Of a DNA stretch of 64,000 nt, positions 3,962 to 26,250 are shown one piece after another. Position 1 is the stretch's first letter, and every line of letters starts with the position of its first letter. Below the pieces are notes generated by a model. The model saw only the letters and a list, made by a program, of their open reading frames with translations, made no database searches and was not told the DNA's origin. This DNA comes from Candidatus Zambryskiibacteriota bacterium. Its GTDB lineage: Bacteria; Patescibacteriota; Minisyncoccia; Phycocordibacterales; DATDWN01. The stretch lies in NCBI GenBank assembly GCA_026394775.1, contig JAPLZY010000008.1, positions 53,367 to 117,366 on the forward strand, in the 5' to 3' direction. The position numbers were made by a program, and so were the translations under genes.

Positions 3962-4450
3962 ATGGCTATTTCAAAAGAAAAAAAGTCAGGGATTCTTGAT
4001 AATCTTAAAAAGATTGTAAAAGAATCAAAATCTCTCGTGTTTTTAAATTTCAAAGGTTTGCCGGTTTCGGACACCAGTGAGATCAGAAAGACGCTTCGAG
4101 AAAAAGGTGTGGGCTACATGGTGGCAAAGAAAACTCTTTCAAAGAGAGCTTTGACAGAAGGTGGTGTCACAGGAGAGATGCCTGTTATGCCAGGCGAGTT
4201 TGCAATGGTATACGGGACAGATCTTTTAGATCCTGCTCGTGAAATCTTCACTTTCCAAAAAAAGTTTGATAAGAAGATTCAGATAGTGGGAGGAGTGTTC
4301 GAAGGGAAGTTTATGGACCAGTCTCAAATGACTATGGTTGCAAATATTCCTGGTATGAAAACTCTTCAGGCTCAGTTTGTTAATCTTATTAACTCTCCGA
4401 TCCAGCGCTTCGTAGTGGCACTCGGACAAATAGCAGAAAAGAAAAGTTAA
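3962..4450 (+). CDS. rplJ: 50S ribosomal protein L10
   Basis: MAISKEKK...VFLNFKGL..VAKKTLSKRAL is a typical uL10 sequence. It is followed by rplL. Confidence 0.9.
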   Translation: MAISKEKKSGILDNLKKIVKESKSLVFLNFKGLPVSDTSEIRKTLREKGVGYMVAKKTLSKRALTEGGVTGEMPVMPGEFAMVYGTDLLDPAREIFTFQKKFDKKIQIVGGVFEGKFMDQSQMTMVANIPGMKTLQAQFVNLINSPIQRFVVALGQIAEKKS

Positions 4451-4570: not shown

Positions 4571-4969
4571 ATGGAAACAGAAAATACAGTAGTTGCTACT
4601 CCTGCGAAGTTTAAATCTATCGTAGAAGCAATCGAAACAATGTCAGTGCTTGATCTTCATGAGTTGGTAAAACACCTTGAAGAAAAGTTTGGTGTATCAG
4701 CAGCAGCAGTTGCAGCAGCTCCAGCAGCGGGCGCAGGTGCGGGTGCAGCAGAAGAGAAATCTTCATTTGATGTAGAACTTACCGACGGTGGTGCTACAAA
4801 GATTGCAGTTATCAAGGTTGTAAAAGAAGCTCTTGCTCTTGGATTGAAAGAAGCAAAAGACCTTGTAGATGCAGCGCCAGCTATGCTTAAGACAGGTATG
4901 AAGAAAGAAGATGCAGATGCTCTTAAAGCAGCTGTAGAAGGTGCAGGAGGAAAAGTTACTTTCAAGTAA
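4571..4969 (+). CDS. rplL: 50S ribosomal protein L7/L12
   Basis: [42 protein letters not shown], then an Ala/Gly hinge, then the C-terminal domain KEAKDLVD...GGKVTFK. The ATG at 4571 is in frame with track ORF 4478. Confidence 0.9.
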
Positions 4970-5075: not shown

Positions 5076-5687
5076 ATGGAAATATTGTCAAAACTCTTCG
5101 GCTCAGAAGCTCGTGTGAAAATCATGCGCCTTTTTTTGTTCAATCCTGACATCGTCTATGAAGTAAACAATATTGCAGAGCGAGTAAAAGAAGATCCTGT
5201 TCGTGTCCGCAAGGAACTCAATGCTCTTGAAAAAATATCCCTGATCAAACGAAAGGTTGTTGCAAAGATTCCGGTCAAACATGGCAAAAAAACAGAGATG
5301 CGTGTCACTGCATATGGCTATCATCTGAATCGGAATTTTTCATACATGGCACCACTTCAAAATTTTCTCATAAATGCAAAACCACTTCAGCCAAAAGAAA
5401 TAGTAAAAAAAATAACACAACTTGGTACAGTAAAACTTCTTGTTATTTCCGGTGTGTTTATCCAGGACTCTGAGAGTCGAGTCGATTTGCTTGTAGTGGG
5501 GGATAATATTAAAAAAACTCAGTTGGAAAATGTCGTAAAGACACTTGAAGCTGAGATCGGTAAAGAGCTCAAGTACGCCTACTTTACAACAACAGATTTT
5601 ATCTACCGTCTCTCTATGTACGACAAGCTAATTCGCGATATATTGGATTATCCACATGACAAGATTATCAACAAGCTTGGTCTCTAA
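5076..5687 (+). CDS. hypothetical protein with N-terminal winged-helix-like region
   Basis: ATG at 5076 is preceded by TATAAT (5063-5068). The track ORF 4941 is an upstream extension overlapping rplL. No confident family assignment. Confidence 0.45.
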   Translation: MEILSKLFGSEARVKIMRLFLFNPDIVYEVNNIAERVKEDPVRVRKELNALEKISLIKRKVVAKIPVKHGKKTEMRVTAYGYHLNRNFSYMAPLQNFLINAKPLQPKEIVKKITQLGTVKLLVISGVFIQDSESRVDLLVVGDNIKKTQLENVVKTLEAEIGKELKYAYFTTTDFIYRLSMYDKLIRDILDYPHDKIINKLGL

Positions 5688-5736: not shown

Positions 5737-6426
5737 ATGATGTTTCAATCGTGGGGAGGTGTGCTTGAGACTTCCTTTCAAAGTTTGTGGTCAGGTATTC
5801 TTTTATTCATTCCAAATCTCATTGTCGCATTAGTGATCTTGGGTCTTGGTTGGGCGATCGGTGCATTGGTAGGAAAAGCTGTCACCAAATTTCTCGATGC
5901 TGTGCATTTTGATGAGGCGTTGCGAAAAACTGGTTTTGAAAATGTTGTGAAGAAAGCTGGGCTTGAGCTTCGAGCATCTCATTTTGTGGGGTGGCTTATC
6001 AAGACAGTTATTATAATTATTTTCCTTATCGCAAGCTTCGATGTGCTTGGTCTTGTGCAGGTAACACAGTTCTTGAGTCAGGTGGTGCTTGGGTATCTTC
6101 CACAGCTCATTGTTGCAGTCCTTATCCTTTTGATCGGAGTAGTAGTAGGAGATGCGATTGAGCGGATCGTGGTAGCATCTTCTCGAACCGCTGGTCTTAC
6201 TTCTTCAGCAATACTTGGAAAGGTTTCAAAGTGGGCAATTTGGATTTTTGCAATTCTCGTTGCGCTTTCTCAGATGGGTATTGCGGGTGCATTTATTCAG
6301 ACACTCTTTACTGGTTTTGTGGTAGCGGTTTCTTTGGCACTCGGACTCGCATTTGGTCTTGGAGGACAGGAGGCAGCGGCGGATGCTATTAAGAAGGTAC
6401 GAGAGGAGATTAAAGAACGACGATAG
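5737..6426 (+). CDS. integral membrane protein (hypothetical, internally repeated)
   Basis: 229 aa with 5-6 TM helices and an internally duplicated architecture. Confidence 0.5.
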   Translation: MMFQSWGGVLETSFQSLWSGILLFIPNLIVALVILGLGWAIGALVGKAVTKFLDAVHFDEALRKTGFENVVKKAGLELRASHFVGWLIKTVIIIIFLIASFDVLGLVQVTQFLSQVVLGYLPQLIVAVLILLIGVVVGDAIERIVVASSRTAGLTSSAILGKVSKWAIWIFAILVALSQMGIAGAFIQTLFTGFVVAVSLALGLAFGLGGQEAAADAIKKVREEIKERR

Positions 6427-6576: not shown

Positions 6577-7132
6577 AGCTTCATTCGGTATGAAAAAAAC
6601 ATTAGATTTAAAAAGCGGCGTTTGAGATAACAAGCTTAATTGATTGTTACCTGGACTCCGCTTTGTGCGGATTTTTTGTTTCTCGGCCTGGCTCGATATT
6701 TGACAACTTAATTCCGCCACTTACTACTGACCAATGATGGGTCTTTTCGGGTGGGTAGGCGGAGCAATACAATGTTACTAACATCGAATAGATATTAGAT
6801 AACAGAGTATGAATGTAAGAAATATAATTGTGGTTTTTAAATTTCCTAATGGGAAATTTAAGAGCATATGGTGGATGCCTAGACTCTAAAGGGCGATGAA
6901 AGACGCGGCATGGTGGCGATACGTTTCGGGGAGGTACCTAGCAACCTTTGATCCGGAAATCTCTGAATGGGGGAACCCAACAGCTTTTGCTGTTACTCTA
7001 CAAATTATGTAGAGCGCACACCCAGGGAAGTAAAACATTTCAGTACCTGGAGGAAAAGAAAACAATGTTCGTAAGAACGACATTTCGTTAGTAGCGGCGA
7101 GCGAACACGAATGAGCCCAAACCGGCACATCA

Positions 7133-7244
7133 CATTGAGCACGGGGAAAATTTTAAATTTAAAATTCTAAATTTCAAAACAAAATGCATGTGCATCCGTT
7201 TTAAAATTTGAAATTAGAAATTTGAAATTCATCCCGCTCTTAGC
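7133..7244 (+). repeat. AT-rich imperfect palindrome inserted in 23S domain I (helix 9-type IVS/expansion)
   Basis: gaaaattttaaatttaaaattctaaatttcaaaac ... gttttaaaatttgaaattagaaatttgaaattc forms a long hairpin. It is closed by ccggcacatcac/gtgatgtgccgg. Confidence 0.55.
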
Positions 7245-7466
7245 GTGATGTGCCGGGGTTGTAAGGTAACAACGTCAAATTTATTTGAGAGAAGTTAAAA
7301 AATAGTATGTTAATGGAATGCACTGGAAAGTGCGACCCTAGAGGGTAATAGTCCCGTACATGAAAATATACTATCTTCTTTGTTGTTATTCTTGAGTACC
7401 TCGAGACATGAATAGCTCGGGGGAATCTGCCGGTACTAACCGGTAAGGCTAAATACTTTTAGAGAT

Positions 7467-7505
<39 letters not shown>

Positions 7506-8922
7506 GTCCGAGAGGACGGTGAAATAGACCTGAAACCATATGCTTACAAGGAGTCGGAGCGGGCAGCAATGTCCCGTCACGGCGTGCCTATTGAAGAATG
7601 AGCCAACGAGTTGATGGATGCAGCAAGGCTAAGTCCTTTACCGGACGGAGTCGTAGGGAAACCGAGTGTGAATAGCGCGTTAAGTTGTATGCATCAGACC
7701 CGAAGCCAGAGCGAGCTTACCATGAGCAGGGTGAACTTTGTCGAAAGATGAAGGGAGGCCCGAACAGTTTAGCCGTGCAATACTATCTGATGACTTGTGG
7801 TAAGAAGTGAAAAGCTAATCGAGCCTGGTAATAGCTGGTTCTCTCCGAAATAGCTTTTGGGCTAGCGTTAGGTGATCCCTTCCGGGGTAGAGCACTGGAA
7901 GGACTCAACAGGGAGCAATCTCGTGAGTCCTATCAAACTCCGAATACGGAAGATTACAGCCTAGCAGTTAGACGGTGGGGGCTAAGCTCCATACGTCAAA
8001 AGGGAAACAGCCCTGATCTCTATTTAAGGTCCCTAAATCTATGTTAAGTACACTTAAGGTGGTGGATTTTCTTTGACACTGAGGAGGTTGGCTTAGAAGC
8101 AGCCATCCTTTAAAGATAGCGTAACAGCTCACTCAGTAAGAGAATCTGCGCCGCAAATAATCGGGGTTAAACATAGTACCGAAACTGAGGGTTTGTATTT
8201 GTTTTTACAAGTACAAGCGGTAGGAGAGTATTCGTATCTGCGCTGAAGCCAAAGGGGTGACCCATGGTGGAGCGATGCGAAGTAAGAATGTTGGCACAAG
8301 TAACCACAATGCAGGTGAAATCCCTGCACGCCGAAAGACTAAGGTTTCCTGTTCAATGTTAATCAGAGCAGGGTTAGTCGGGCCTAAGGAAATGGAGAGA
8401 TCCGCATCCGATGGACATGAGGTTAATATTCCTCAACTTTTATGTAATGCGATGGAAGGACGGAGTGCTGTATGTAGGGCTCATTATTGGATTTGAGTCA
8501 CTGTCGTGAGAATGTGTCCCAGGTAAATCCGGGCACTCACTTTAATGTGGTATTCGAGCGGTTGCGAAACCTTGCGATTCGTCAAGAGGGATTCTACAAA
8601 GCGCGCTTCCAAGAAAAGTTTCTAAGCTTAAGTACATAAGAACCGTACCGTAAACCGACACAGGTAGTCAGGTCGAGTAGACCAAGGCGAACGAGTGAGA
8701 GATCCCCAAGGAACTCGGCAAAAAAGCAGCCGTAACTTCGGAATAAGGCTTGCCCACTTTAATGTGGGCCGCAGCTAAAGTATTTCTGGCAACTGTTTAT
8801 CAAAAACACAGCTCCCTGCGAACTCGTAAGAGGATGTATAGGGGGTGACACCTGACCAATGCCAGAAGGTCAAATATGGGAGCTAAATGTCGCAAGACGC
8901 TAGGTTGACTGTATAAGCCCTG

Positions 8923-9416
<494 letters not shown>

Positions 9417-9955
9417 GCGCACGAATGGTGTAATGACTGGAAAACTGTCTCGGGGATTTGCTCGGTGAAAATACAATACCGGTGAAGATGCCGGTTACCT
9501 GCAGTTAGACGAAAAGACCCCAGGAGCTTTACTGCATCTTGATATTGAGAATATGACTTGCATGCGTAGCATAGTGGTGAGGATTTGAAGGGCACTCCCG
9601 GGTAGCCTGGATCCGTCAGTGAAATAGCCATCTTGTTTGTTATATTTTCTAACCTCGGCGGAAAAAACGACGAGAGACAGTGTCTGGTGGGCAGTTTTAG
9701 TGGGGCGCTATCCTCCTAAAAAGTAACGGAGGAGTTTATTAAGGTCAGCTAGCCGTGAATGGAAACCATGGCGATAGTGTAATGGCACAAGCTGGCTTAA
9801 CTGTGAGACGTACATGTCAAACAGATGCGAAAGCAGAACATAGTGAACCGACGGTCCGTGTTAGAGGCGGCCGGAGATTATCGGATAAAAGCTACCCTGG
9901 GGATAACAGGCTGGTTGTGCCTAAGCGTCCAAAGCGACGGCACAGTTCGGCACCT

Positions 9956-10801
9956 TAACTCTCAATGTAAAAATTGGGAAACATCGGGGTGCCTATGGGA
10001 GTAATTCCATACAAAAAATATTTGGCTTATAACGGTGGACTCCATATACAAGCGTTGTATCAGAAATGGTATAATTAAAACAATATGGACAATACCGCGG
10101 GAAGTTTAACTCAATTACAGAAGTCATTTGTTATTGGAACTCTTTTGGGAGACGGATATATTCGTCAAGCAAAAGGGAGAAAAAACGCATTTCTTGAAGT
10201 AAATCATTCAATTACTCAAAAAGAGTATGTTGAATGGAAATATAGTATCTTGAAAAATTTGACACGAAGCGGTCCAAAATCTAGAAATGGAAATGGAACA
10301 CGCATCGCGTATAGATTTTTTACTAGACAGCATCCAGAATTTACTAAAATTATGGATTTGTTCTATAAAGATAGAAAGAAATGTATTCCTAATCTAAAAT
10401 TAGATCCTTTAATGGTGGCAGTATGGTTCATGGACGATGGAAGTAGATGTAATAAAGAAAATGTATACCTTAATACTCAACAATTTGCTAAAGAAGATCA
10501 GTATAAACTACTTGAATCTTTGAAAGAGATTGGTTTAGAGGGAACTCTGAACAAAGATAAAGAGTATTATCGCATTAGAATTAAAACATCAAGTATTCCT
10601 AAGTTGTTTGGAATAATAAAAGAATTTATTATTCCTTCCATGAGATATAAAATTGGGTTATGACCCTGTAGAGACTTGACCTGAAAGATGGTCAGAGTGT
10701 GAAGGAAAACTTCATGCTAACACGCCGAACTCCCTTTCATTTAGAGAAAGGGATGAAGATATAGTCCGATCCTTCTGGTAACAGAAGAAAAATACGACAC
10801 G
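9956..10801 (+). mobile_element. group I intron 2 in 23S (domain V, near E. coli position ~2500) carrying an intact LAGLIDADG HEG
   Basis: Exon GGCACCT|...|CGATGTCGGCTCATC. R-like gaccctgtagagacttgacc and S-like gatgaagatatagtcc elements are present. Confidence 0.75.
10085..10663 (+). CDS. LAGLIDADG homing endonuclease (double-motif, monomeric type)
   Basis: Motif 1 VIGTLLGDGYI and motif 2 VAVWFMDDGS, 192 aa, located inside the 23S intron. Confidence 0.85.
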   Translation: MDNTAGSLTQLQKSFVIGTLLGDGYIRQAKGRKNAFLEVNHSITQKEYVEWKYSILKNLTRSGPKSRNGNGTRIAYRFFTRQHPEFTKIMDLFYKDRKKCIPNLKLDPLMVAVWFMDDGSRCNKENVYLNTQQFAKEDQYKLLESLKEIGLEGTLNKDKEYYRIRIKTSSIPKLFGIIKEFIIPSMRYKIGL

Positions 10802-12452: not shown

Positions 12453-12586
12453 TAGTTCTGGTGATTCGTCGCAGATGGTCCGCCCTACAGGCGCTGTACA
12501 CCTTTTACATTTTGCTATTTATTAAAATCGCAAAATGATCAAGGTCTTGCGCTTGGGTCCCATCCCAAGCTCACCTGTTCTCATTC
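12453..12586 (+). pseudogene. partial 5S rRNA pseudo-copy interrupted by a 97-nt insert containing a REP-like hairpin
   Basis: 12453-12474 is identical to 5S nt 1-22 and 12572-12586 is identical to 5S nt ~27-42. Between them lies gcttggg-tcccat-cccaagc. The 3' two thirds of 5S are missing. Confidence 0.5.
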
Positions 12587-12610
12587 AATTAATACAATCA
12601 GTTGAAAATT

Positions 12611-12725
12611 TAGTTCTGGTGATTCGTCGCAAAGGTCACACCTGTTCTCATTCCGAACACAGTAGTTAAGCTTTGTTGAGGCGATGATACTCCGCAAGGG
12701 GGAAAGTAGCTAGTCGCCAGAACTA
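12611..12725 (+). rRNA. rrf: 5S rRNA
   Basis: agttctggtg...cacctgttctcattccgaacacag...ccagaacta. Helix I pairing and the conserved CCGAACAC loop are present. Confidence 0.85.
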
Positions 12726-17838: not shown

Positions 17839-17878
17839 CGATATTACTTTTTAGTGTTATATTCGTAATAGGAGGAGA

Positions 17879-18091
17879 GTGATGGATGCTAACACTCTAA
17901 TTGCAGGAAGTGAACTCCCTGCACGGATAAGAAATCTTTGCAGGGATTATCCCTATTTAGGTAAAACCTTTGGGGACCTTGCAACCTATAAGTCCTATGA
18001 GCTCCGCCGATGGCGTCATGTCGGAGAAGGGATTGTTGAGGAGACAAAAGTTGTCCTCAAAAAGGCAGGTCTCGAATTTACCGACAACTAA
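17879..18091 (+). CDS. stand-alone RNA polymerase alpha-subunit C-terminal domain (alphaCTD)-like protein
   Basis: 70 aa ELPARIRNLCRDYPYLGKTFGDLATYKSYELRRWRHVGEGIVEETKVVLKKAGL matches the alphaCTD helix-hairpin-helix pattern. A GGAGG lies upstream, which is rare here. Confidence 0.45.
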   Translation: MMDANTLIAGSELPARIRNLCRDYPYLGKTFGDLATYKSYELRRWRHVGEGIVEETKVVLKKAGLEFTDN

Positions 18092-18097
18092 AAAGAA

Positions 18098-18130
18098 GGA
18101 CTGGAAGCATAATGTTTCCAGTCCTTTAAA
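18098..18130 (+). terminator. hairpin, weak terminator
   Basis: ggactggaa-gcataatgt-ttccagtcc followed by ttt. Confidence 0.4.
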
Positions 18131-18171
18131 TTATTAAAATCTTCTCTCAGTAAAAGTCCTTATAAATATTT

Positions 18172-18192
18172 CCCCAAGGCCGGGCCTTGGGG
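18172..18192. repeat. REP-like palindrome upstream of the RAYT-like gene
   Basis: ccccaagg-ccggg-ccttgggg, a perfect 8-bp stem. Confidence 0.6.
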
Positions 18193-18223
18193 AAAGTACC
18201 TGCTTGGTTTATCATATTAGAAT

Positions 18224-18886
18224 ATGACGACCAGAAAAGAAAATTTTGCTGAAGGAGAGTATTATCATATCTATAATCGAGGTAATAGTAAGCAAATTAT
18301 TTTTCTTGATGATCAAGATAGGGATAGGTTTGTGAAGTTACTTTATCTTTGTAACTCAGGAAAAAATATAAATTTTAGGGATGACATTACTGAAAGGGGA
18401 ATTGACGCTTTTGACTTTGACAGAGGAGAGCAAATCGTTTCTATCGGAGCTTGGGTTTTAATGCCTAATCATTTCCATATCTACATCACCCCTAGGCGAG
18501 GCCTAGGGGTAGAAGATGATAATTTTCTTGCGAATTTTATTCATAAGCTTTGCACGAGTTATTCTATGTATTTTAATAGAAAGTATAAGAGAACAGGGAA
18601 GTTATTTGAGGGAGTTTTTAAATCGACTCATGTTGAAAGTGATGAACAGGCAAAGTATAACTGTTCTTATATTCATCTTAATCCTGTTAAATTGATTGAT
18701 TCGCTTTGGAGAGAAAATGGAATACAGGATATTAAAAAAGCACTAGAATTTTTAGATACTTATAAGTGGAGCAGTTATCTGGATTATAAAGGGACAAAGA
18801 GGTCTGAAAATAAGATTATTTTCCCAGAGGATTTTCCTGATTATTTTTCTGACAAAAAAGTTTTTGAGGAAGAGATTTTTGAATAG
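18224..18886 (+). CDS. HUH Y1 tyrosine transposase, IS200/IS605-like (REP-associated RAYT family)
   Basis: GEYYHIYNRGNSKQIIF...LMPNHFHIYITP (HuH motif) ... YIHLNPVKL (catalytic Tyr region), 220 aa. Confidence 0.7.
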   Translation: MTTRKENFAEGEYYHIYNRGNSKQIIFLDDQDRDRFVKLLYLCNSGKNINFRDDITERGIDAFDFDRGEQIVSIGAWVLMPNHFHIYITPRRGLGVEDDNFLANFIHKLCTSYSMYFNRKYKRTGKLFEGVFKSTHVESDEQAKYNCSYIHLNPVKLIDSLWRENGIQDIKKALEFLDTYKWSSYLDYKGTKRSENKIIFPEDFPDYFSDKKVFEEEIFE

Positions 18887-18915
18887 TTAAATTATGGTAA
18901 TAGGTAAAAGGTTCC

Positions 18916-18934
18916 ACCAAGGGGTACCCTTGGG
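18916..18934. repeat. REP-like palindrome downstream of the RAYT-like gene
   Basis: ccaaggg-gtac-ccttgg(gg) shares a CCAAGG/CCTTGG core with the upstream element. Confidence 0.6.
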
Positions 18935-18990
18935 GAAAAATAATACGGCGACATTGCATTTCCCCTCAAAATCCCTATAATAAGCCGCAT

Positions 18991-22420: not shown

Positions 22421-22744
22421 ATAAAATTTGCTTTTGCAATTTTTACCAAGAGTTTGATCCTAGCTCAGGATGAACGCTGGCGGCGTGGATAAGGCATGCA
22501 AGTCGAGCGCCTCGCAAGAGGAGCGGCGAACGAGGTAGTAACACGTTGGTACACACCCTTTAGTCAGGAATAACTAGTCGAAAGATTAGCTAATACTTGA
22601 TAGTCTCTTCGGAGTAAAGATTTATCGCTAAAGGAGTGGCCTGCGGAGTATCAGCTAGTTGGTAAGGTAATGGCTTACCAAGGCTATGACGCTTAGAGGA
22701 CCTGAGAGGGTGACCCTCACCGATGGTACTGAGACACGGACCAT

Positions 22745-22775
<31 letters not shown>

Positions 22776-22904
22776 CCGCAATGGGCGAAAGCCTGACGGA
22801 GCGACGCCGCGTGATTGATGAAGTCCCTCTGGGATGTAAAGATCTTTTATGAGGGAGAAAGTTTATTGATAGTACCTCATGAATAAGGGGTTGCTAAACT
22901 CGTG

Positions 22905-23838
22905 AGAGGCAGATTAAGCATCTGCAATCCTAATTTAGTAACAGCATTAAAAATTCGTATTTACCGTGCGCGACTTTGAACCGTAAGGTTCTTAGCAAAT
23001 TCGGCTTATATGCTGGGACTCTGTACAGAGCTGCGTTCAACACATGTTGAATTCTCTACAGACAATCAGCAGGGAAGTCGGATATAATAAAGGTAATGTC
23101 TTTATCGCAAATTCAACAATATATTCTCACAGGGCTTTTGCTTGGAGATGGTTGTCTTGAACGAAAGTCCAAGAACAGCCGACTCCAGGTCAAACAGTCA
23201 GTAGGTAAGAAAGAATATGTATTCTGGTTATATAATTATTTTTCTGAATTCGTAAAAACTCCTCCCCAACAAAGGAAGGATACAAATCAGTGGTATTTTG
23301 CCACTCGATCTTTATCTCAATTTGAAGAATGGAATGCGGTGTTTTACAAAAACAGAAAGAAAATTGTTCCAGAAAATATATCAGAGTTATTGGCTTCGCC
23401 GATAACACTTGCCGTATGGATGATGGAACTCTCGATTATCGAGAGAAATCACATTATTCATTTACCTATAGTACTGACTCGTTTAGTGTAGAAGAGGTTT
23501 CTCTTCTACAGGATGCTTTGTTAGAAAACTTTGGGATAGAATCATCGATTCAAACTCCAAAGTCGCGAGGAAAAAAATATACAAAATTGTATATTGGAAA
23601 AAATGGGCGAGAGCGATTTATAAAAATCATTCAGCCTCACATCCTCGATTGTTTTCCGTATAAAGTGCCTCCAATTATATCTTGACCCCTCAGAGACTGA
23701 TCCTGCGGACATATTAATGTATGTCTTGAGGGTGAGATAGAGAGATTTTTTTAAATCTTCTATCAGACGCCGAACCCCATTTTTTATAGAATGGGTGATG
23801 ATATAGTCCAATCCTCGTAGTGATATGAGAACAACTGG
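22905..23838 (+). mobile_element. group I intron in the 16S 530-loop region (near E. coli 516-518) with a decayed HEG
   Basis: Exon ...gctaaactcgtg|...|ccagcagcagcggtaatac. R-like ccctcagagactgatcc and S-like ggtgatgatatagtcc are present. Confidence 0.75.
23096..23685 (+). pseudogene. frameshifted double-motif LAGLIDADG homing endonuclease
   Basis: Motif 1 LTGLLLGDGCL lies in one frame and motif 2 ...LAVWMM/MDDGTLDYREK continues in the -1 frame. The break is at about 23415-23430, within the direct repeat tggatgatgga. Confidence 0.65.
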
Positions 23839-24471
23839 CCAGCAGCAGCGGTAATACGAGTGCCCCAAGCGTTATCCGGAATTATTGGGCGTAAAGGGTG
23901 TGTAGGTGGTAGTGTTAGTCTTTTGTAAAATCTCCAGGCTTAACCTGGAAACCGCGAAAGAAACGGCACAACTAGAGGGTGCGAGGGATGTATGGAACTC
24001 ATGGAGTAGGGGTGAAATCCGTTGATATCATGGGGAACACCAAAAGCGAAGGCAATACATTGGCGCATTCCTGACACTGAAACACGAAAGCGTGGGTAGC
24101 GAATGGGATTAGATACCCCAGTAGTCCACGCCCTAAACGATCTTCTCTAGCTTTTCGGAGTATCGACCCTCTGAGAGGCGAAGCTAACGCGTTAAGAGAA
24201 GCGCCTGGGTAGTACGACCGCAAGGTTAAAACTCAAAGGAATAGACGGGGACTTGCACAAGCAGAGGATTATGTGGTTTAATTCGACGATAAACGAAGAA
24301 TCTTACCAAGGTTTGAAACCTAGCTGAATATATTTGGAAACAGATATAGTCTCACAAGGACAGTTAGGCAGGTGATGCATGGCCGTCGTCAGTTCGTGAT
24401 TTGAATTGTTCCCTTAAGTGGGGTAACGAACGCAACCCTCGTTGTCTGTTACAAGTGTCAGGCGAGACTGC

Positions 24472-24612
24472 TCAGCTCTTTGCGTAGAAAAGCAAAGAGG
24501 ACATAAAACAGAAACGAGATGAAACGATAACTATAAATAATAAGTAGAAAGTAAAAGAAGGAAGTGATTCGGGACGTCCCGTTTCTGTTAGCTTTTGTAA
24601 ATAAAGAGCTGA
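24472..24612 (+). other. ~130-nt expansion of 16S helix 40
   Basis: gactgctcagctcttt...aaagagctgag-aggaaggtg replaces the E. coli CCAGTGATAAACTGG hairpin. Confidence 0.5.
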
Positions 24613-24837
24613 GAGGAAGGTGAGGATGACGCCAGGTCAGCATGTCCCTCTGATACCTTGGGCTACACACATAATACAATGGTCACTACAACGCGTCGCG
24701 ACGGGGAAACCCTGAGCCAATCGTAATAAAAGTGGCCCCAGTTCGGATTGAGGGCTGAAACTCGACCTCATGAAGTTGGATTTGCTAGTAATCGCGGGTC
24801 AGACATACCGCGGTGAATACGTTCTCAAGTCTTGTAC

Positions 24838-25257
24838 TCAAAATTAAAAGCGCCGGGCAGGTAATAAATCTAGTTGGTTAAAATCCAACCTTGAAAAAGT
24901 AGCGAAAGGGTAATCTGCTGACCGTGAGGTTGGCAGGTGAAGGATCCTAGTAGCAAAAAGCAGCCTATTTATAAAAAGAGAGGTACGACCCATCAGGTGA
25001 GTCATGGGGAAGTATCAACAAAATTAAGTTTTTGGTCTCAAGTAGGATGCAAGGAACAGAGTTATTACTGACCCCTGGGAGATCTCATGGTGTAAAAGAC
25101 AATGAATAAGTACCTTGAGAAGTCAGCTGCGTCGTAGTAGTTTCGATCTAGTATCGGAATGAAGGACAAAATCGTTAGTTTTTGAAACTAACGAACTCGC
25201 GTAGTGCGGGAAATCCGCACGCTACGTGGGAACGCGAAATATTGTTAAATTATCGCC
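24838..25257 (+). mobile_element. ~420-nt intron-like insertion in 16S adjacent to the decoding-centre sequence (TTGTAC|...|CCGCCCGTCA), ORF-less, class uncertain
   Basis: The exons align to E. coli 1385-1405 with the insert between them. R/S-like gacccctgggagatc and cgatctagtatcgg are only loosely canonical. Confidence 0.55.
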
Positions 25258-26177: not shown

Positions 26178-26250
26178 GCGCGTGTAGCTCAGCTGGTAGA
26201 GCAATCGACTGATACTCGGTAGGTCCCAAGTTCGACCCTTGGCACGCGCA
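26178..26250 (+). tRNA. tRNA-Ile (anticodon GAT)
   Basis: Manual fold gives a 7-bp acceptor gcgcgtg/cacgcgc, D stem gctc/gagc, anticodon stem atcga/tcggt, loop ctGATac, T stem ccaag/cttgg, T loop ttcgacc and discriminator A. No CCA is encoded. Confidence 0.8.

Follow-up and report, generated by a model that had tools for sequence, protein, structure and literature searches.

RAYTs (REP-associated tyrosine transposases, REP standing for repetitive extragenic palindrome) were the first bacterial transposases to be described as domesticated, and their cellular role is still unknown. They belong to the TnpAY1 enzymes, in which a 'Y---NP' tyrosine motif marks class 2 (RAYT-like) and 'Y---Q' marks IS200 (PMC6006769), while domesticated RAYTs are defined by their housekeeping-like behaviour (PMC5581495). 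The locus described here lies in a stretch of 64,000 nucleotides (hereafter the window) of contig JAPLZY010000008.1, from a Candidatus Zambryskiibacteriota bacterium, and consists of a Y1 HUH nuclease gene with one hairpin upstream, one inside and one downstream of it. We consider it likely that the gene is domesticated and inherited vertically and encodes a Y1 HUH enzyme (TnpA-Y1, RAYT-like, class 2), by which its two or three cognate hairpins would be bound, cleaved and homogenised. The family is widespread in Patescibacteria/Parcubacteria, a group that was not in the TnpAY1 survey (PMC6006769), and nothing specific was found in the literature on this family in Patescibacteria or the wider candidate phyla radiation (CPR). 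The locus is a member of a Patescibacteria-wide RAYT/REPtron group with a cognate hairpin inside the gene and hairpins that are untagged and apparently not dispersed, that is, a system of a kind already known and not a new one.

Likeness to the REPtron (E. coli YafM, PDB 4ER8; PMC6006769; PMC5581495) extends to (i) the Y1 HUH fold, 4ER8 being the best match both in structure and by sequence profile, (ii) the 'Y---NP' motif and a C-terminal tail with a conserved Ser-Ser (WSSY), (iii) the presence of one or two divergent copies per genome, vertically inherited and conserved in a housekeeping-like manner, and (iv) the lineage-specific palindromes that bracket the gene, each paralogue having its own hairpin. 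Unlike in the REPtron, there is here no GT[AG]G guide and no dispersed high-copy REP/REPIN population was detected, 'FE' replaces the conserved 'WQ', the protein falls below the NCBIfam equivalog cut-off and the host phylum, Patescibacteria, is absent from published surveys.

In-frame REPs inside RAYT genes have already been described, for TnpAY1 subclass 2.4 (Quentin et al., 2018, PMC6006769), which corresponds to Bertels group 4. As in that subclass, the cognate palindrome is read in-frame at a site that separates the HuH motif from the Tyr motif, within the beta3-alphaC region and a predicted peripheral loop, and the HuH motif is of the NH[IFV]H type. However, subclass 2.4 has WQ and YIxNNP motifs, GTAG 'double-foot' REPs and hosts among Cyanobacteria and Bacteroidetes, whereas the present family combines FE and YIHLNP with untagged hairpins, and its insertion occupies a single fixed site throughout the subfamily, its sequence being kept identical to that of the flanking copies. 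Subclass 2.1/TIRYT (Bertels group 1) has much in common with the present family, namely NH[YF]H, Y[IV]HLNP, F for W in the 'W' motif, a length of ~220-240 aa and the SS tail, and its flanking repeats carry GGGGWSAS while many hairpins here have a TTCCCC...GGGGAA foot. It differs by its C-terminal domains resembling a helix-turn-helix (HTH) and its terminal inverted repeats, with no REP-like hairpins reported, whereas true hairpins are found here and no HTH is seen by Pfam. With the IS200/IS605 insertion sequences (IS200, IS608, ISDra2), the locus shares the catalytic fold, subterminal hairpins bordering the gene and a unit of ~0.7-0.8 kb; IS200 TnpA, in contrast, is ~130-150 aa long with a 'Y---Q' motif, is found as multiple near-identical copies, often together with tnpB, against 220-235 aa including a C-terminal tail here. 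Finally, Rickettsia palindromic elements also reside in-frame in open reading frames (ORFs) that stay functional (PMC3733652), but they are dispersed in many unrelated genes, unlike the present in-frame copy, which is not dispersed and lies in the gene of its presumed cognate enzyme.

The window locus

The features of the locus are listed below, where A1 is an alignment of 20 sequences with at least 65% identity and A2 an alignment of 87 sequences with identities down to 33%.

18169..18195, no strand assigned: upstream hairpin H1, TTTCCCCAAGGC-cgg-GCCTTGGGGAAA, 12-bp perfect stem, ending 28 nt before the ATG
18224..18886, plus strand: Y1 HUH nuclease/RAYT-like gene, 220 aa, ending at a TAG that replaces a near-invariant Trp codon
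18470..18478, plus strand: HUH motif codons H83-F84-H85, invariant in A1 and nearly so in A2
18488..18510, no strand assigned: intragenic hairpin H2, ACCCCTAGGC-gag-GCCTAGGGGT, directly after the HUH motif and encoding in-frame T-P-R-R-G-L-G
18668..18685, plus strand: Tyr motif codons Y149-I-H-L-N-P154, the class-2 'Y---NP' signature, with Y149 as the presumed catalytic tyrosine
18884..18907, plus strand: premature TAG (18884-18886) followed by the remnant LNYGNR of the relatives' C-terminus and an ancestral-type TAA (18905-18907)
18912..18937, no strand assigned: downstream hairpin H3, TTCC-a-CCAAGGG-gta-CCCTTGG-GGAA, perfect core at 18917-18933, ~30 nt past the stop

The initial annotation had proposed a RAYT/IS200-like protein of 220 aa with a HuH motif and a Tyr region, both of which are present: LMPNHFHI (NHFH being residues 82-85) and YIHLNP at residues 149-154. 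A1 shows no variation at Y149, H151, N153 and P154 and A2 almost none, Y149 being presumably the single catalytic Tyr downstream of HUH, and the 'Y---NP' motif places the protein in TnpAY1 class 2, not with IS200. Judged by its motif set (NHFH; L-F-E-G, with F-E for W-Q; YIHLNP; a tail with WSSY in which S184 is invariant), the family is nearest to subclass 2.1 while fitting no published subclass exactly. Y1_Tnp (PF01797) is matched by 81 of the 87 diverse relatives (E<0.01, best E 1.1e-11) and many homologues carry a precomputed match to it, which supports the assignment to the Y1 HUH (IS200/RAYT-superfamily) enzymes, with no family scoring better. Neither the PHROGs (phage) nor the PADLOC (defence) profiles matched the window protein, and no HTH domain was detected by Pfam in this protein or in the 87 relatives. 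The family is large, with more than 7,800 close homologues; among 1.84 billion cluster representatives at 50% identity, 11,056 matched at E<=1e-3, 2,557 at 1e-10 and 164 at 1e-30.

Structural comparisons point the same way. The A2 profile searched against PDB sequences found TnpA-REP 4ER8 first (E 0.0036), followed by ISDra2, IS608 and IS200 TnpA (the A1 profile found nothing at E<=1), and the AlphaFold2 model reached a pLDDT (predicted local distance difference test score) of 92.9 with A2, compared with 36 with the shallow A1. The best Foldseek match of this model in the PDB is again 4ER8, a RAYT bound to its REP hairpin (E 3.2e-7, template-modelling score of 0.65 normalised to the target), ahead of ISDra2, IS200, IS608 and Sulfolobus TnpA, all with a probability of 1.00. 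In the model, HUH lies on strand 83-90, aligned with HMH of 4ER8, and Y149 lies in helix 140-157, aligned with Y115 of E. coli TnpA-REP (DYIYINP).

As for the hairpins, a pair flanking the gene and sharing a CCAAGG/CCTTGG core had been noticed at the outset. Both the upstream member and the common core stand, as does the downstream member, except that its loop is GTA and not GTAC, and the inventory was incomplete, the third, in-frame hairpin having been missed. Folded as single-stranded DNA, H1 has a free energy of -13.7 kcal/mol (z -4.7), H2 of -12.6 (z -5.7) and H3 of -9.3 (z -2.6). The pattern CCWWGG-N3-7-CCWWGG occurs three times in the window, each time within this locus of 770 bp, against 0.12 expected per 64 kb from simulated sequence of the same dinucleotide make-up. 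H1 is identical to the upstream hairpin of a relative (L082), and the position of H3 is homologous to that of the relatives' 3' hairpins, which often overlap C-terminal codons. The conserved unit is thus some 770 bp long (18169-18937) and reads cognate hairpin, gene, cognate hairpin.

This particular copy has changed in two respects. First, where the C-terminus of relatives reads ...EEIFDWLNYGNE*, the window has TAG instead of TGG, the codon of a near-invariant Trp, and this late nonsense mutation costs the protein its last ~8 residues, including this Trp; the copy is otherwise intact, with 91-92% identity to full-length relatives. Second, H1, H2 and H3 are no longer identical to one another: H1 is of the L082 type (CCCCAAGGC-cgg), the stem of H2 is of the type seen in L081 and L098 (CCCCTAGGC) and H3 is CCAAGGG-gta. 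Across the window's own clade, the hairpin types make up a mosaic at odds with the protein tree. With its non-identical hairpins and its TGG>TAG change, the system may be slightly eroded here. The gene is single-copy in the window, where no second paralogue or pseudogene copy was found.

Hairpins across relatives

The key evidence for a partnership between protein and hairpins comes from 80 loci fetched from species-representative genomes, nearly all titled as Patescibacteria/Parcubacteria-type metagenome-assembled genomes (MAGs), together with the loci of the closest relatives. Almost every locus (80+) has one GC-rich hairpin 15-60 nt 5' of the ATG and a second one that coincides with the C-terminus or closely follows it. 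Upstream and 3' hairpins have the same 7-nt inner stem in 48 of 67 loci (72%), against 0.8% for pairs taken from different loci, and the upstream hairpins have 60 distinct stems among 75 loci (e.g. TCCCAGGT in L001, TCCCCTAAAC in L003, TGCGGAAGC in L005, CCGGTAAC in L018, CCACCAGT in L021 and CAGCCCTAGGC in L071). Since stems are identical within loci and different between them, the hairpins are best seen as cognate elements that co-evolve with the gene, not as terminators of its neighbours. These comparisons support a specific, co-evolving protein-hairpin partnership and, at the level of sequence, show concerted evolution of the hairpins within a locus. Co-evolution of TnpA-REP with its REPs has been described before (PMC8266576).

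Several other properties accompany this pattern. Loops co-vary within a locus, being the same or reverse-complementary barring one or two cases, and are found in both orientations at every hairpin position. Most stem positions show each of the four Watson-Crick pair types and G-T pairs are nearly absent, as scored by a hairpin finder that demanded pairing and took G-T for a mismatch. Paralogues that are 44-48% divergent in one genome have different hairpins (L005 vs L049, L019 vs L071), and the 82%-identical pair L022/L024 has one hairpin in common. In four loci (L014, L040, L052 and L059), two inverted copies of the hairpin flanking the Y1 gene form a larger palindrome, or REPIN-like doublet, which in L040 reads TCTGCACAGGC-aag-GCCTGT-gtac-ACAGGC-ctt-GCCTGTGCAGA, and a TTCCCC...GGGGAA foot is common among the hairpins. 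Recent duplication was considered as the whole cause of the identity of hairpins within loci and excluded by the 18% divergence of flanks around identical hairpins.

The intragenic hairpin follows the same rule. It is a feature of the window's subfamily and is found at nt 263-278 of the gene in 37 surveyed loci; its 7-nt inner stem equals the upstream one in 25 of 36 loci and the 3' one in 23 of 34. Compared with the hairpin-less subfamily (HFHILVTE--KTEGGISKF), these proteins have an insertion of 7-20 residues exactly after HFHxxxT/S, made of hairpin-encoded residues. The encoded peptide varies with the hairpin (PRRGLG, PKPGLG within SPKPGLG, NAEARL, SHQSDWW, PAGNPVTG and others) without any loss of perfect pairing in the stem, and it is therefore the palindrome that is conserved, not the peptide. 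In the structural model, residues 90-100 are the sole internal stretch of low confidence (block mean pLDDT 68), between the HUH strand 83-90 and helix 101-120, so that H2 is predicted to encode a surface loop between this strand and the next helix. A separate clade (L051, L062 and L080) has an in-frame copy at another site, aa 53-59. The locus of L092 (P0075) yielded no perfect hairpin, and its in-ORF peptide has lost the PRxxLG pattern; the hairpins of this lineage may have decayed.

Could all this be nothing special, with the in-ORF palindrome arising because a PRxxLG peptide is conserved and the flanking hairpins due to chance or to the neighbours' terminators? Such a reading has next to no chance of being right and is refuted: although P90, R91 and G95 are nearly invariant (>=90% of rows) and Leu94 is the majority residue in the 20 sequences of A1, and although no other place in the window has these hairpins, in the wider subfamily the encoded residues vary along with a hairpin whose stem stays perfect and equal to the flanking ones, the motif count in these 770 bp far exceeds its expectation, stem identity within loci dwarfs that between loci, and the in-ORF copy, the recurrent layout with lineage-specific stems and the upstream neighbour's own terminator dispose of the idea, which the initial annotation had named as what would refute it, that the hairpins merely terminate adjacent genes.

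Inheritance, dispersal and rival explanations

The surroundings of the gene bear on its mode of inheritance. In relatives of 82-92% protein identity, the order is the same as in the window (glycosyltransferase, Bac_transf, small ORF, Y1, SecD, SecF) and the Y1 gene has diverged about as much as its neighbours (86-90%). SecDF is downstream in only 4 of 80 distant loci, where other conserved contexts exist. A sister lineage of 69-70% identity (L094-L097, gene at 10001-10705, and L092) stably keeps the gene in one of these, which reads RecJ, RNase H, ComEC, Sod_Fe_C(-), Y1, a gene of 302-303 aa (with a Lactamase_B match in L096 and L097 only), Peptidase_M50, S12, S7 and EF-G. Paralogues within one genome are 52-82% identical, and no near-identical copies were seen in these partial genomes. 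The gene order kept in close relatives, the neighbour-like divergence and the lack of near-identical copies indicate that the gene is vertically inherited and domesticated.

The edges of the locus are less quiet. When the sequence is compared with close relatives, homology is lost exactly at the outer foot of H1 (18169) and at that of H3 (~18909), and it resumes at 18169 with L082 and L086. The segment between the Bac_transf stop and H1 (17840-18168) is unique to the window and contains a 70-aa ORF (17879..18091) and a terminator-like hairpin (18096-18126), while close relatives have unrelated small ORFs of 48, 82 or 89 aa in this gap; none of the variable small ORFs beside H1 had a significant Pfam match. 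In L082 (86% protein identity), the remnant of the 3' hairpin, TTTCCCCTAGGGGAA, directly abuts a second copy, 86% identical, of the final ~119 nt of Bac_transf (4215-4333 vs 5472-5590), after which come a different small ORF and a duplicated terminator (4623-4670 vs 5896-5943, 94%), and this is a rearrangement with its junction at the hairpin. Since homology breaks at the hairpin feet, the 770-bp unit is discrete and its edges are hot spots of rearrangement, so that an IS200-like past, or mobility on rare occasions, stays in play as a rival explanation.

How might a domesticated enzyme and its hairpins work together? If it behaves like E. coli TnpA-REP and IS200/IS605 TnpA, the protein would bind the hairpins when their DNA is single-stranded, and would then cleave and rejoin DNA beside or within them by means of an HUH-bound metal and Tyr149. 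Such activity may account for the identity of the two or three hairpins at a locus despite the drift of their sequence between lineages, and palindrome-driven template switching or short-tract conversion could either contribute to this homogenisation or be an alternative to it.

The extent of dispersal is where the locus departs from the REPtron arrangement that had initially been proposed. The first half of this proposal, a gene between cognate palindromes, turned out to be the rule in the surveyed loci; the second did not hold, with neither dispersed copies nor a GT[AG]G tag found. Extra copies of the hairpins in the fetched loci cluster near the gene, with 9 in 52 kb at 0-0.5 kb, 11 in 65 kb at 0.5-1 kb and 3 in 62 kb at 1-1.5 kb, and beyond 1.5 kb there is one copy in 276 kb. 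These extra copies are usually in the next intergenic gap, and loci with +-10-kb flanks contain no dispersed ones. A metagenome-wide scan for CCCCAAGGCCSGGCCTTGGGG returned 5 contigs, in one of which it lies 3' of a Y1 gene (L087), the others being unrelated and two of these high-GC contigs. In the window and the fetched loci, the hairpins are thus apparently a private local set and not a genome-wide repeat family, a sparse population being possible.

Several observations weigh against a domesticated RAYT that acts on its own hairpins. The window protein scores 18.5 bits against PF01797, below the gathering cut-off of 23 that defines membership, unlike many of its relatives, and its sole NCBIfam match, to NF047646 (REP_Tyr_transpos; 43.2 bits, E 3.5e-11), is below the equivalog cut-off of 80. 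There are no dispersed copies of the hairpins elsewhere in the window and, because such copies are not seen, the 'REP' half of REP/RAYT is missing. The GT[AG]G/CGTC foot tag occurs about as often as expected by chance, at 9 of 274 strand-feet (5 GTAG, 2 GTGG and 2 CGTC), although subclasses 2.6 and 3 also have no guide tetranucleotide (PMC6006769). The mosaic of hairpin types in the window's clade means that homogenisation is not universal, and its mechanism is hard to account for when no dispersed population is there from which the locus could be re-seeded. Finally, we infer hairpin cleavage in this clade by analogy.

A bolder version of this scenario, which we regard as doubtful, is a self-contained 'REPtron without REPs', that is, a domesticated HUH nuclease found throughout the phylum whose only substrates are the two or three hairpins of its own locus, one of them fixed in-frame in its own coding sequence, and which would itself actively keep them identical. 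If true, this could be a cis-acting device operating at the DNA level, in which, for instance, self-cleavage or excision between H1, H2 and H3 could switch or limit the expression of the gene, or which could instead mark a site associated with replication or repair, in either case unlike a disperser of genomic repeats. It would also offer a tractable minimal system for understanding what domesticated RAYTs do.

That the locus is an autonomous insertion sequence of the IS200/IS605 type, in which the outer hairpins are subterminal left and right ends and the 770-bp unit moves by single-strand peel-and-paste, is unlikely. The hairpin-Y1 gene-hairpin layout and the size do match IS200, the loss of homology coincides exactly with the outer feet of H1 and H3, the L082 junction abuts the 3' hairpin and gene contexts differ between lineages, as the rarity of SecDF in distant loci illustrates. 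However, the Tyr motif is the class-2 'Y---NP' and not the 'Y---Q' of IS200 (PMC6006769), there is no tnpB, and no genome contains near-identical copies, paralogues being as divergent as described above and the window having one copy in 64 kb. Moreover, at 82-92% identity synteny is kept and divergence equals that of neighbouring housekeeping genes, and breakpoints at palindromes can also come from general palindrome instability.

It is less probable still that the hairpins act in RNA or transcription, as bidirectional terminators, an in-ORF attenuator, or protein-binding sites for mRNA stability or autoregulation, and are alike through ordinary gene conversion rather than through DNA cleavage by the enzyme. 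Consistent with such a role, A-runs and T-runs flank many of the relatives' hairpins as they do bidirectional intrinsic terminators (e.g. AAAAACGGAAGC-ctt-GCTTCCGTTTTT in L006 and L025), H1 was called terminator-like on the minus strand, and REPs elsewhere are known as RNA elements (PMC3733652). Against it, the upstream ORF already has its own terminator-like hairpin (18096-18126) and H2 and H3 in the window have no T-runs. The stems are strictly Watson-Crick with G-T essentially absent (in a search where G-T was scored as a mismatch). Either loop orientation is found at every hairpin position, something that a signal in one RNA strand would not tolerate, and lineage-specific stems that track the identity of the paralogue point to a specific protein partner. 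A role at the RNA level would, in any case, be compatible with a domesticated enzyme that acts on these hairpins and would not exclude it.

What makes the family worth studying is the tenacity with which it is kept. Patescibacteria genomes are among the smallest and most streamlined known, yet a RAYT-like gene is kept at one or two copies in thousands of them and evolves as slowly as SecD/SecF. Its retention in streamlined genomes and its slow evolution argue that the enzyme is useful without a genome-wide REP population. One gene with two or three hairpins that vary between lineages yet are identical within a locus amounts to a natural experiment on (i) protein-hairpin co-evolution and (ii) the homogenisation of short palindromes. 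There are also implications for annotation, since calls of 'hypothetical protein' or 'transposase' in CPR MAGs hide a coherent family and perfect palindromes inside ORFs need not mean assembly or frameshift artefacts.

rRNA genes in the same window

A hairpin related to those of the Y1 locus had also been placed in a 5S pseudo-copy, which is not the case. The hairpin in question (12551-12570, GCTTGGG-tcccat-CCCAAGC) is without the CCWWGG core, has a 6-nt loop and is unrelated to the Y1 hairpins, and no 5S copy is found there by Rfam even at E<=1, the only real 5S being at 12615-12722. What 12551-12587 does contain is this hairpin and, after it, CACCTGTTCTCATTC, 15 nt that repeat part of the genuine 5S gene located 45 nt downstream.

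The rRNA genes themselves are unlinked and in an unusual order, with 23S at 6848-10013, 5S ~2.6 kb later and 16S ~10 kb further (22450-24889), and protein genes, including the Y1 locus and secDF, lie between them. The 23S match is 3,166 nt long against a model of 2,925 nt, so that this gene probably also carries insertions. A group II intron D1-D4 match lies at 25082-25167 and a tRNA at 26178-26250. Intervening sequences and introns in 16S genes are common in CPR bacteria, and the 16S gene is here in two pieces, 22450-22976 (model positions 9-546) and 23689-24889 (annotated as 1-1533 in 1,201 nt), separated by ~710 nt that look like an intervening sequence or intron.

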